Origin: Candidatus Eremiobacteria bacterium
GTDB taxonomy: Bacteria; Vulcanimicrobiota; Vulcanimicrobiia; Vulcanimicrobiales; Vulcanimicrobiaceae
Assembly (NCBI GenBank): GCA_963737065.1
Contig: CAVTRC010000001.1
Coordinates: 1,824,001-1,888,000 of the forward strand
Length of the DNA stretch: 64,000 nt
Direction: 5' to 3'
The stretch's first letter is position 1, and the number at the start of each line of letters is the position of its first letter. Below the pieces are notes generated by a model. The model was not told the origin of the DNA, searched no databases, and saw only the letters and a program-made list of their open reading frames with translations. The position numbers and the translations under genes were made by a program. This document shows, piece after piece, positions 39,121 through 41,126 of this stretch.

Positions 39121-41126
39121 CCGACCGGAGTGAAGCGCGCGCGGAAGAGCTGCGCGCGCAGATCGACGAGGCAAATTATCGGTACTACGTCCTCGACGAC
39201 CCCGCGATCACCGACGCGGAATTCGATCGGCTCCTTCGCGAGCTGATCGATCTCGAAAGCAAACATCCGAAGCTGCGCACACCCGATTCTCCGACTCAGC
39301 GTGTCGGCGCGCCGGCGTCGGAACGGTTTGCGCCATACCGTCACGCGCGGCCGATGTTGAGTCTCGCGAACGCATTGGACGAAGGCGAATTGCGCGCATT
39401 CGACGAGCGTGTCCACAAACTGGCAGGCCCTTCGACAAGCTCAGGACAGCCTCCGATAAGGTACGTCTGCGAGCTGAAGATCGACGGTTTGGCGATCGCG
39501 CTCGACTATCGCGATGGTGCGCTCGAGCGCGGCGGTACGCGCGGCGACGGAACGGTCGGCGAAGACGTTACGCCGAACTTGCGCACGATTCACACGATTC
39601 CGCTGAAGCTGCGTGATTCCGCGCCGCGGTTCATCGAAGTGCGCGGTGAAGTCTACCTGCGTAAGAGCGATTTCGAAAAACTCAATGCGAAGCGCGAGCG
39701 CGAAGGGCAATCCCTCTTCGCCAACCCGCGCAACGCGGCATCCGGCGGCGTCCGCCAACTCGATCCGAAGCTGACCGCGCAGCGGCGGCTGTCGTTCTTC
39801 GCCTACGCGATCGCCGAAGGCGGCAAGGGCGTGAAGTCTCAATCACAGGCATTGGATTTGCTGCGCCGCTTAGGTTTTCGCGTGAACGAGCACATCGAAA
39901 GCGCTGCAACGATCGATGACGTGATCGCGTACTGTCGCGGGTGGGAAGATCGCCGCGATGAGCTCGACTACGAGATCGACGGTGTCGTCGTCAAAGTCGA
40001 CGATCTCGCGACGCAGGAGCGGCTGGGCACCGTCGCCCGCGATCCGCGGTGGGCAATCGCGTTTAAATTCAAACCGCGCGAAGCGCGAACGAAGCTCGTC
40101 GATATTGCTATTACGGTTGGCCGTACCGGCACGCTGAATCCCAGCGCCGTGCTCGAGCCCGTGAAAATCGGCGGCGTTACGGTTCGCAATGCGACGCTCC
40201 ACAATCAAGACTATATCGACGGTAACGACATTCGCATCGGCGACACCGTGCTCGTCACGCGAGCGGGTGACGTGATTCCGCGCGTCGTTGCGCCGATTCT
40301 TGCCGAGCGTAACGGTAAAGAGAAACACTTCCGTGTGCCCGATGCCTGTCCGGTCTGCGGCGCGGCTGTCGATCATCCCGAAGGCGAAGCGATGTCGCGT
40401 TGCACGAATGCGGCCTGCCCCGCGCAAGTCGTCGAGCGCGTGCGTCACTTTGCGTCGCGCGGCGCGATGGATATCGAAGGCCTTGGCGACGTCATGGCCG
40501 AGCAACTTACCAGCCTCGAACTCGTCCGCGATATTTCCGACATCTACGCGCTCGACCGAAACAAACTGCAGCGCGTGCCGCGCATGGGCGAGAAGAGCAT
40601 ATCGAAACTCTTGGCGGCGATCGAAGGATCGAAGGCGCGAGGCCTAGCGCGCGTTCTCACGGGGCTCGGCATTCGGTTCGTGGGGGAACAAACCGCAGCG
40701 ATCCTCGCGTCCGATTTTGGAACGGTCGACGAGCTGGAAGCGGCGAGCGCCGACAACCTACAGCGCAGCGAAGGCATCGGGCCGGAAGTCGCCACCAGCG
40801 TGCGGCTGTTTTTCGAGCAGAAGGCGAACCGCGCGATGATCGACCGCCTGCGCAAGAGCGGCGTGGCGCTCGAATCGGCCGCGCCGCGCCGCAACCCCGA
40901 AGGCCCGCTGATCGGAAAAACATTCGTCCTCACGGGGGGCCTCGCGTCGATGACCCGCGAGGAAGCGACGGCGCTCATCGAGGCCGCGGGCGGCAAAGTG
41001 ACCGGGTCGGTCAGCAAAAAGACGGATTACGTGGTCGCGGGCGACGCCGCGGGCAGCAAATTGACGAAAGCGGAGCAACTCGGCATCACCATCCTCGACG
41101 AAGGCGGCCTACGGGCTTTGATTTAG
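39117..41126 (+). CDS. ligA: NAD-dependent DNA ligase
   Basis: [24 protein letters not shown], zinc finger, BRCT ([12 protein letters not shown]). Confidence 0.98.
39428..39449 (+). repeat. REP-like short element, copy 3, inside ligA
   Basis: CCCTTCGACAAGCTCAGGACAG, read as PSTSSGQ. Confidence 0.8.

Follow-up and report, generated by a model that had tools for sequence, protein, structure and literature searches.

The locus raises the question of why an essential DNA ligase should carry, ten residues ahead of its adenylation lysine, an odd peptide whose coding sequence recurs elsewhere in the 64-kb stretch of DNA analyzed here (hereafter, the window). The ligA gene (39117..41126, + strand) encodes a 669-aa NAD-dependent DNA ligase, as judged from Pfam, its orthologues, the invariant columns and an AF2 model; the full domain set was found with Pfam, and the lysine of the KxDG motif is K121. 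The 22-mer CCCTTCGACAAGCTCAGGACAG lies inside this gene at 39428-39449 of the + strand, and codons 39429-39449 specify PSTSSGQ, i.e., residues 105-111 of LigA, with K121 ten residues downstream. The initial annotation had taken this odd loop for a repeat inserted in frame just before the adenylation lysine, and the alignment of LigA orthologues for empty sites bore this out: an insert was present at this site in 18 of 120 close orthologues and absent from 102, and the removal of PSTSSGQ left KLAG-PPIR-YVC, which has the length of the empty orthologues. The solved LigA structures 1b04 and 1tae required gaps of 8 and 7 residues, respectively, opposite PSTSSGQ. The inserted DNA is a 21-nt copy of a repeat unit (copy C, 39429..39449, + strand; profile match at 39427-39452). 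The AF2 model shows coil for residues 104-115 (pLDDT 67 for the block 101-110) and places the insert in the loop between helix 89-103 and the strand that bears K121, so that copy C is predicted to occupy a surface loop of this essential enzyme.

A second copy (copy B, 38698..38724, + strand), located both by edit-distance search and by profile, lies in uvrA (35761..38742, + strand; Pfam), whose ORF opens with a TTG codon at 35671, the 993-aa database form starting at M31 (35761). Copy B is a 27-nt in-frame insertion that encodes PSTELRTGS in the C-terminal tail of UvrA, and an extra G in the middle of the unit switches the reading frame. This tail is unconstrained, and most UvrA orthologues are also empty at the site and end in GDR-VAVEA; in 13-14 of 115, GDR and VAVEA are separated by a unit-like insert. 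The third copy (copy A, 16410..16429, + strand), in which the middle of the unit is the 3-nt GAG, is intergenic, and fills the 24-nt gap between the gene of a B12-binding subunit (stop at 16409) and gltX. An ungapped search of the window with the 22-mer, allowing up to 3 mismatches, returned one match, the query itself (0.00 expected). By edit distance, the copy ending at 38719 was found at distance 2 (the inserted G plus a substitution) and that ending at 16429 at distance 5, and no copy was detected on the minus strand of the 64-kb window. When an nhmmer profile made solely from copies of other genomes was run against the window, it matched 38696-38722 (E 8.5e-7), 39427-39452 (E 2.8e-6) and 16412-16429 (E 4.2e-3), in each case on the + strand. 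The early count of three same-strand copies in 23 kb, two of them in DNA-repair ORFs, can therefore be kept, with the qualification that the UvrA copy is gapped and the third one intergenic. Five matches to the 11-mer core with at most 1 mismatch were counted in the window (0.71 expected), a number reached by 0 of 100 shuffles; the match at 53071-53081, considered as a candidate fourth copy, was without support from the family profile and was rejected. The Rfam hits of the window were two tRNAs and a group II intron domain and nothing else, and no described RNA family fits the repeat.

These copies probably represent a dispersed, non-palindromic repeat unit of 23-27 nt that occurs in many bacterial phyla, and of which the ligA motif would be a complete copy. 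The consensus of the unit, which has sharp ends, is (C/T)C-CTTCGAC-(2-4 variable nt)-CTCAGGACA-GGC(T). A motif scan of contigs from species-representative genomes gave at least 123 stretches, and the matches listed come from Chloroflexota, Nitrospirota, Acidobacteriota, Proteobacteria, Bacteroidota, Verrucomicrobiota, Planctomycetota and Actinobacteria, from candidate-phyla-radiation (CPR) lineages such as Parcubacteria, and from one Eremiobacterota. Among the matches listed, 131 distinct instances were compared at positions that the search pattern left unspecified, and conservation was observed at -1 (C in 119) and -2 (C/T in 124), and at +1 (G in 95), +2 (G in 118) and +3 (C in 91); there was no conservation outside the ends of the unit, and the two ends were not inverted copies of each other. 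As DNA, single units folded no better than shuffles (z-scores of +0.73, +0.07, +0.61 and +0.01), and hairpins were found only at composite loci such as L121 (z -14.3) and L077 (z -4.4). The motif had initially been read as the single-arm footprint of an inverted pair; this description suits a minority of copies that form an arm of a long hairpin, as at these two loci, but not most copies, which are discrete sharp-ended units. In-frame copies in proteins of other phyla were seen in an SdhB-like protein, an NTP transferase and a type II/IV secretion-system ATPase (Pfam T2SSE), and Pfam analysis of 122 of the 257 ORFs located no farther than 1.5 kb from a unit in other genomes revealed ordinary housekeeping genes. 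With Rfam, 20 short unit loci yielded just sub-threshold matches on both strands, of perfect palindromes to miRNA-precursor models, and phage records contained no match to the unit.

The inserts in the two repair proteins have been gained or lost repeatedly. The 17 inserts among 116 rows of the LigA tree imply 10 changes, of which the starred branches force at least 7; the UvrA tree requires 8 changes, 7 of them forced. Each tree thus has at least 7 gains or losses of unit inserts. In the control gene GltX, by comparison, 1 genuine case was seen in 120 orthologues. The UvrA inserts differ in variant or frame clade by clade, and the Baltobacteraceae orthologues carry unit-derived peptides at no fewer than three LigA loops and at least two UvrA sites; the extra unit peptides lie at about aa 160 and 226 of LigA and at about aa 240 of UvrA. 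Unit peptides were found in frames a, b and c as well as from the reverse strand (LSLSKG, CPPGLVEG). The use of all three sense frames and of the reverse strand, together with so many gains or losses per tree, identifies it as a repeat at the level of DNA and not as a selected peptide. Every sense frame of the unit is open, as are two of its three antisense frames, and an insert of 21, 24 or 27 nt does not shift the host gene out of frame; this is why copies in tolerant loops survive as passenger peptides, which are short and hydrophilic (e.g., PSTSSGQ, FD.LRT and LRQAQD). Older inserts would presumably decay until they are ordinary loop sequence. Among related lineages the same few loops are hit again and again, with filled and empty alleles patchily distributed, and this recurrence may merely reflect the tolerance of those sites for inserts. 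The filled LigA alleles share ..QAQIR-YVC across clades, whereas the empty ones have ..VS-YVC, which indicates that part of the patchiness is due to allele exchange or old polymorphism rather than to fresh insertion. The profile, the phylum spread and the LigA and UvrA orthologues support the original proposal that core proteins acquire peptides from a family of dispersed miniature repeats.

As to how the unit spreads, no mobilizing gene had been recognized at first, and the 64-kb window indeed contains neither a GIY-YIG gene (Pfam, tblastn) nor a transposase; the 122 of 257 scanned ORFs lying up to 1.5 kb from units in other genomes likewise include no GIY-YIG gene and no transposase. A lead is nevertheless provided by GIY-YIG genes themselves. 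On a Sphingomonas plasmid the 3′ end of such a gene is made of a unit variant, at L092 and L097 the unit adjoins a GIY-YIG gene, and in 22 of 150 diverse GIY-YIG representatives the N- or C-terminal extensions run into unit peptides. Two Methylobacterium GIY-YIG genes lie between inverted repeats of 85-95 nt, in which both boxes of the unit recur without a change of order. A GIY-YIG gene bracketed by family repeats was observed at L092, L097, L124, L125 and L126, and no unit was detected at two other GIY-YIG loci (L127 and L128). The flanked protein has about 90 aa and corresponds to Pfam PF01541. Repeats flanking GIY-YIG genes, a possibility named in the initial annotation, were observed in other genomes but not in the window.

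We know of no GIY-YIG enzyme that mobilizes such repeats. From the sequence comparisons we tentatively suggest that the unit is non-autonomous and might depend for its spread on a small, stand-alone GIY-YIG nuclease that acts in trans; the association could also indicate that the repeats are targeted by the gene, or that the gene merely sits in repeat-rich spacers. In a likely route, a break at a unit-like sequence would be followed by templated repair from another copy, which would leave coding copies without a target duplication and would favor sites already resembling part of the unit. It is possible, although doubtful, that the ~24-nt cross-phylum repeats are the non-autonomous part of an unrecognized mobile system, the autonomous form of which would be a minimal cassette of ~0.6 kb, in which inverted repeats enclose a single gene for a stand-alone GIY-YIG nuclease. 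Such a system would copy its repeats by break and templated repair into new sites, tolerant loops of essential proteins among them, and would be a steady source of loop sequence that later decays.

The alternative that survives best invokes no dedicated enzyme: the inserts would arise when replication slips or switches template between dispersed copies (short-patch gene conversion where there is microhomology), homologous recombination would then move them between lineages, and the GIY-YIG genes would merely lie in, or target, repeat-rich spacers. We regard this explanation as rather unlikely. In its favor, the native sequence on the 5′ side of several insertion points looks, by eye at five sites, like the 3′ half of the unit, AAGCTCAGGACAGGC (e.g., KLAG = AAACTGGCAGGC, LKLR = CTGAAGCTGCGT, and the UvrA site GTGCTCACCGAC), and the coding copies of the window, in ligA and uvrA, are not flanked by a target duplication. 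Tandem arrays with a 24-nt period are found at L016 and L044; among the matches listed, 11-14 of 130 units have a partial module of the same orientation no more than 60 nt away, against ~0.6 expected; and filled LigA alleles of different clades have flanking residues in common. Template switching alone, however, does not explain a near-identical 24-nt consensus with sharp ends in many phyla, nor the GIY-YIG cassettes bracketed by inverted repeats, nor the direct repeats of 8-10 nt present beside some copies. Direct repeats of at least 7 nt that resemble target-site duplications (TSD) flank 13% of 130 instances among the matches listed (2.3% in the null), which hints at a transposition-like route for some copies.

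A derivation from known repeats was also considered. REPs, whose intragenic members of the GTAG and CGTC superfamilies were analyzed by Di Nocera, De Gregorio & Rocco (2013, BMC Genomics 14:522, PMC3733652), are dispersed, mostly intergenic repeats of 20-40 bp in several phyla; according to that paper they occur in frame, at loops or termini, in uvrA, uvrB, uvrD, recB, polA, dnaE2 and a ligase gene, and the CGTC REPs have no known dedicated transposase. The unit is comparable in size (23-27 nt) and dispersal (three copies in the window and the stretches in species-representative genomes), and some of its copies also lie in frame within genes that include uvrA and a ligase gene. It is nonetheless improbable that the unit is a classical REP or a REPIN fragment, mobilized on single-stranded DNA by RAYT, an IS200/IS605-like HUH tyrosine transposase. 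The REP-range size, the dispersed copies, the insertion without target duplication, the single strand shared by the three window copies and the REPs published within uvrA and ligase genes would all fit, but the single unit does not fold (DNA z-scores of 0 to +0.7), its ends are (C/T)C.../...GGC(T) with no conserved GTAG or CGTC at either, and neither a Y1 transposase nor a unit-flanked RAYT was found in the window or in the 122 of 257 neighbor ORFs scanned. The peptides of the unit are also missing from the REP-encoded residue table of PMC3733652. The lack of palindromy and of a GTAG/CGTC tag in the unit alone indicates that it is not a classical REP; and its recurrence at the same loops has been traced here on gene trees.

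In the REPIN-RAYT system (Bertels & Rainey 2011, PMC3116915), many short non-autonomous repeats coexist with a low-copy nuclease gene that they flank. The logic proposed here, non-autonomous repeats plus a repeat-flanked nuclease gene, is the same, but the flanked gene would encode a GIY-YIG protein and not a HUH tyrosine transposase, and the GIY-YIG link is a statistical one, drawn from genomes other than that of the window. MITEs, given as 70-300 bp in PMC3733652, are likewise non-autonomous and dispersed, some copies of the unit have MITE-like flanking direct repeats (8-10 nt), and the GIY-YIG cassettes between inverted repeats resemble an autonomous parent element; the unit, in contrast, has ~24 nt and no terminal inverted repeats of its own, and the coding copies in the window lack a TSD. 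With Rickettsia palindromic elements (RPEs) the unit shares the selfish in-frame insertion into functional proteins and the tolerated peptide segments. RPE-1 elements, however, are palindromic, far longer and restricted to Rickettsia, whereas the unit is short and non-palindromic, adds only 7-9 residues, and is found in many phyla, its host here being a Baltobacteraceae-like Eremiobacterota. RPEs are also cited in PMC3733652.

It is most improbable that the unit is a selected recognition signal, of the DNA-uptake type or bound by some other protein, that accumulates in genome-maintenance genes and is neither mobile nor copied. Uptake sequences have a known bias towards maintenance genes; they are lineage-specific, occur at high density and arise mainly by point mutation. 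Two of the three window copies are indeed in repair genes, the patchy alleles suggest recombination, and strict unit peptides were found in 16 of 120 LigA and 25 of 115 UvrA orthologues against 2 of 120 for GltX (1 genuine), although GltX is the single control gene behind this comparison. Unlike uptake sequences (DUS/USS), however, the unit has a low density (3 copies per 64 kb), crosses phyla, and distinguishes its alleles by a discrete sharp-ended insertion. Nor does orientation point to such a signal: the coding copies in the orthologue sets are nearly all on the forward strand, but a general sense-strand preference was rejected, given that the copies outside ORFs in other phyla are 9 sense and 16 antisense among the matches listed. 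Chance similarity, or a linker or phosphorylation-site peptide selected at the protein level, is barely credible in spite of the likeness of PSTSSGQ to a generic flexible linker, given profile E-values of 1e-6 to 1e-7 for the window copies, the existence of an intergenic copy, and frame data that contradict it, in that the same loops carry translations of identical DNA from three frames and from the reverse strand.

The locus had been put forward as the best candidate for an undescribed system. The kind of element is already known, since REPs and RPEs that lie in frame within uvrA, uvrB and ligase genes have been published (PMC3733652), but we found no prior paper on this repeat family or on its GIY-YIG association. 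In the literature searched, which takes in a minority of the subscription journals, there was nothing relevant to the DNA or peptides of the unit, and no paper that links GIY-YIG (COG2827/YhbQ) with REP/RAYT, repeats or MITEs.

LigA and UvrA provide a concrete and datable case of loop growth in essential enzymes, in which a unit of 21-27 nt inserts, is tolerated, is swapped among lineages and would finally erode to an ordinary loop. The family accounts for many recurrent odd peptides, such as PSTSSGQ, FD.LRT, LRQAQD, LSLSKG and PE.VEG, in the predicted proteins of environmental bacteria, and its recognition is an aid to annotation. If the GIY-YIG link were true, a second partnership between a nuclease and a miniature repeat would stand beside RAYT-REP, with another nuclease fold and in many phyla, and the published question of why inserts are frequent in repair genes would become testable.

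The 22-mer CCCTTCGACAAGCTCAGGACAG is located on the + strand at 39428-39449, within a 669-aa ORF (39117-41126) that Pfam and ~120 close relatives identify as the NAD-dependent DNA ligase LigA. As the initial annotation had read it, the repeat is in frame ahead of the adenylation lysine: codons 39429-39449 encode PSTSSGQ (residues 105-111), and the motif-I lysine, K121, is found further on. No further match to the ungapped 22-mer was detected in the window at up to 3 mismatches. An edit-distance scan of the window revealed a second copy that differs by an inserted G and a single substitution; it ends at 38719, and its likeness to the ligA copy extends through ...CAG[G/C]CTCCG. 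The scan also gave a third, looser copy ending at 16429, and no copy on the minus strand. The second copy (38698-38724, 27 nt, + strand) lies in the final 15 codons of uvrA and reads PSTELRTGS; the third (+ strand) occupies the 24-nt gap between the gene of a B12-binding mutase subunit and gltX. The earlier claim of three same-strand copies, two of them in repair ORFs, holds in this form, with a gapped second and a looser third copy. A profile built from foreign copies only matched the window with E-values of 8.5e-7, 2.8e-6 and 4.2e-3, and the ligA and uvrA copies agree with the dispersed unit, flanks included. An 11-mer match at 53071, considered as a fourth copy, gained no support in later analysis.

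The window also carries uvrB, a GH38 mannosidase gene, enolase, two tRNAs and a group II intron fragment. Neither a transposase nor a GIY-YIG gene was found within the 64 kb, in agreement with the initial annotation, which saw no mobilising gene here. The repair genes are clustered at 30082-41126, all on the + strand, in the order uvrB, GH38 mannosidase, uvrA, a glyoxalase-fold gene and ligA. The uvrA ORF begins at a TTG (35671), 30 codons 5′ of the start of the database form (993 aa, P0123), and its true start is likely M31 at 35761. The nearest LigA, UvrA and GltX proteins are named Candidatus Aquilonibacter, Baltobacteraceae and Eremiobacteraeota, among others. A group II intron remnant occupies the window edge (1-1100), with a reverse-transcriptase fragment (ORF 3-395, Pfam RVT_1) and a catalytic-intron match (Rfam RF00029) at 663-738. 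A 49-nt direct repeat of 73% identity (family D17; 969-1017 and 53818-53866) adjoins ORFs without a Pfam match at both copies, possibly relics of a mobile-element gene. At 13500-13620, the overlapping short direct repeats D1, D9 and D12 (periods ~18-21 nt) fall within a 317-aa ORF of no Pfam family (13153-14106), and look like a repetitive protein segment.

The coding copies in ligA and uvrA are insertions. Orthologues were compared at the protein level, and in the alignment of 120 LigA proteins (73-100% identity, the window's own included) that had been proposed as a check for empty sites, 102 were empty and 18 carried 5-9 extra residues at exactly the same place, almost all of them PST[SGD]SGQ-like. 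Removal of 21 nt from the window ligA yields KLAG-PPIR-YVC, which has the length of the empty form, and the solved adenylation domains 1b04 and 1tae show gaps of 8 and 7 residues, respectively, against STSSGQPP. In an AlphaFold2 model (40 orthologues, mean pLDDT 84.6), residues 104-115 are predicted to form a coil between a helix (89-103) and a strand (116-122), with a pLDDT of 67 for block 101-110. Similarly, most of the 115 UvrA orthologues finish insert-free as ...GDR-VAVEA, and a related insert is present at GDR/VAVEA in 12-13 orthologues besides the window's.

A peptide selected at the protein level was ruled out, because the same DNA is read in several frames. In the UvrA tail different clades use different frames of the unit: PSTGSGQ corresponds to sense frame a, SFDSLRT and AFDELRT to frame b, in the same wording as the intergenic window copy, and PSTELRT to a change of frame brought about by the extra G. 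Among the fetched LigA orthologues, the loop at ~aa 160 contains PSTGSGQA, LRQAQGD and R.AQDDK together with the reverse-strand readings LSLSKG and CPPGLVEG, and that at ~aa 226 contains LRQAQDD and LRQAQGD. At UvrA ~aa 240, DPSTGSGQA is found in 5 sequences, and LRQAQDDK.W and its decayed forms in at least 20. At this position the UvrA orthologue P0234 has a unit-derived LRQAQGD followed by three tandem TKGAERD, so that the insert seems to have given rise to further tandem expansion.

Gene trees were built with FastTree after removal of the variable segment. The 17 inserts among 116 LigA rows (four rows under 600 aa left out) required 10 changes, at least 7 of them forced by well-supported branches; for UvrA, 114 rows (one short row left out, and P0142 wrongly scored as empty by the regex) gave 8 changes, 7 of them forced. 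Some pairs of filled and empty LigA are near-identical outside the insert (e.g., P0021 and P0071, path length ~0.01), and the inserts of LigA and UvrA are distributed independently in proteins matched by the length of their contigs. Filled LigA alleles of separate clades share ..QAQIR-YVC, the empty form being ..VS-YVC, so allele exchange or an old polymorphism accounts for part of the patchiness, and the inserts of P0023, P0031 and P0066 give the impression of independent events. Gain and loss clearly recur at the same few sites.

When the pattern CTTCGAC-N(2-4)-CTCAGGACA was scanned over one genome per species, at least 123 stretches were obtained in many phyla, a count that says little since by our arithmetic ~200 matches would arise by chance over the collection as a whole. 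At the sequence level, it is the flanks, left unspecified by the pattern, that are the telling evidence for a family. Among 131 distinct instances, position −1 was C in 119 and −2 was C or T in 124, and positions +1 to +4 were G (95), G (118), C (91) and T (63); beyond −2 and +4 these instances show no conservation. This sharp end defines the unit as a discrete block of 23-27 nt, whose middle is AAG (25), AGG (25), TTCG (20), TCCG (6), TACG (5) or another short string. Further copies of a dispersed miniature family, as first suspected, do exist. Its description as single-arm footprints applies to a few loci in which a long hairpin has the unit as one of its arms (z −14.3 in L121 and −4.4 in L077), but single units fold no better than their shuffles (z 0 to +0.7).

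About one tenth of the units have a related module, in one or the other orientation, no more than 60 nt away: around 130 units, CTTCGAC was found 11 times on the downstream side and 14 times on the upstream side, and GTCGAAG 6 times on each, with ~0.6 expected. Loci L016 and L044 are tandem arrays with a 24-nt period. Direct repeats of at least 7 nt flank 13% of the units versus 2.3% in the null, and some resemble target duplications of 8-10 nt; no such repeats flank the coding copies of the window. In six loci (L004, L024, L045, L052, L084 and L116) the flanks repeat on both sides because the units are embedded in short tandem heptamer-like repeats (such as CTCCAAT, CCTTCAT and GGGTTTA), which may reflect duplicated targets or else a bias towards simple repeats. 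About half of 89 matches were intergenic (42) or at ORF edges (2), with no sense bias between co-directional genes (9 sense versus 16 antisense). In the foreign set (80 loci with 5-kb flanks and crude ORF calls), in-frame copies occur in an SdhB-like protein, a nucleotidyl transferase, a T2SSE type II/IV secretion-system ATPase and a hemagglutinin-repeat protein. The unit at 5001-5019 of L006, from the acidobacterial Ca. Sulfotelmatobacter, lies ~50 nt 5′ of its ligA, probably by coincidence.

In the 122 of 257 neighbouring ORFs that were scanned, the units had ordinary neighbours; a single XerC/D-like integrase and a single HNH protein were among them, but no transposase. Ten plasmid records matched the unit, and a 106-aa GIY-YIG gene on a Sphingomonas plasmid has a unit variant as its final codons; tblastn with this protein located GIY-YIG genes adjoining the unit in L092 and L097. 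A HMMER search with the L092 protein returned 13,791 representative clusters (E ≤ 1e-3), of which the best 150 were analyzed. Among these best 150 of 13,791, C-terminal extensions of at least 10 aa were present in 79 (13 with forward- and 5 with reverse-unit peptides) and N-terminal ones in 70 (3 and 6, respectively), and 22 proteins had at least one unit peptide in an extension. The GIY-YIG domain PF01541 was present in all 6 representatives checked. Two Methylobacterium GIY-YIG genes lie between 85-95-nt inverted repeats containing CCTTCGAGG...CCTCAGGATGAGG, the two boxes of the unit in the same order, separated by a 14-23-nt hairpin instead of 2-4 nt; no such inverted repeats were seen at the GIY-YIG loci L127 and L128. 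Small GIY-YIG genes adjoin a tmRNA-like 3′ end (L092) or tRNA genes (L020, L128), which are typical landing sites of integrative elements. The arrangement resembles the RAYT-REP system, with a different nuclease. These observations suggest an association between GIY-YIG genes and units in other genomes; the boldest reading would be a hypothetical GIY-YIG cassette with unit repeats, and equally the gene could target the repeats.

Di Nocera et al. 2013 (PMC3733652) described GTAG- and CGTC-tagged REPs within genes, including uvrA (Opitutus, Thioalkalivibrio), uvrB (Rickettsia), ATP-dependent ligase and other repair genes, and CGTC REPs without a dedicated transposase. In-frame repeats in repair genes were therefore already known, contrary to the undescribed system first proposed. 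The present unit lacks the stem-loop and terminal tag (GTAG/CGTC), two features that define REPs, its peptides are absent from that paper's list of REP-encoded peptides, and no report of its sequence or of a GIY-YIG-repeat link was found in a literature search with most subscription journals outside its coverage. Strict unit peptides occur in 16/120 LigA, 25/115 UvrA and 2/120 GltX orthologues, one of the latter being a native look-alike. This excess in repair proteins is like that of intragenic REPs, for which a preference for replication and repair genes has been published; measured against one control gene, it could reflect the number of tolerant loops per protein.

As for the origin of the inserts, the native DNA directly 5′ of several sites resembles, by eye, the 3′ half of the unit, and one might speculate that a nuclease breaks such a unit-like sequence, which is then repaired by copying from another unit. 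The unit is open in 5 of 6 frames and the inserts measure 21, 24 or 27 nt; their survival would be filtered by reading frame and also by loop tolerance, and they would decay over time, possibly through a UvrA series DPSTGSGQA, DPSSGSG and DPATKGT. What is shown is that a repeat found across phyla sits in tolerant loops and tails as discrete blocks that keep the reading frame.
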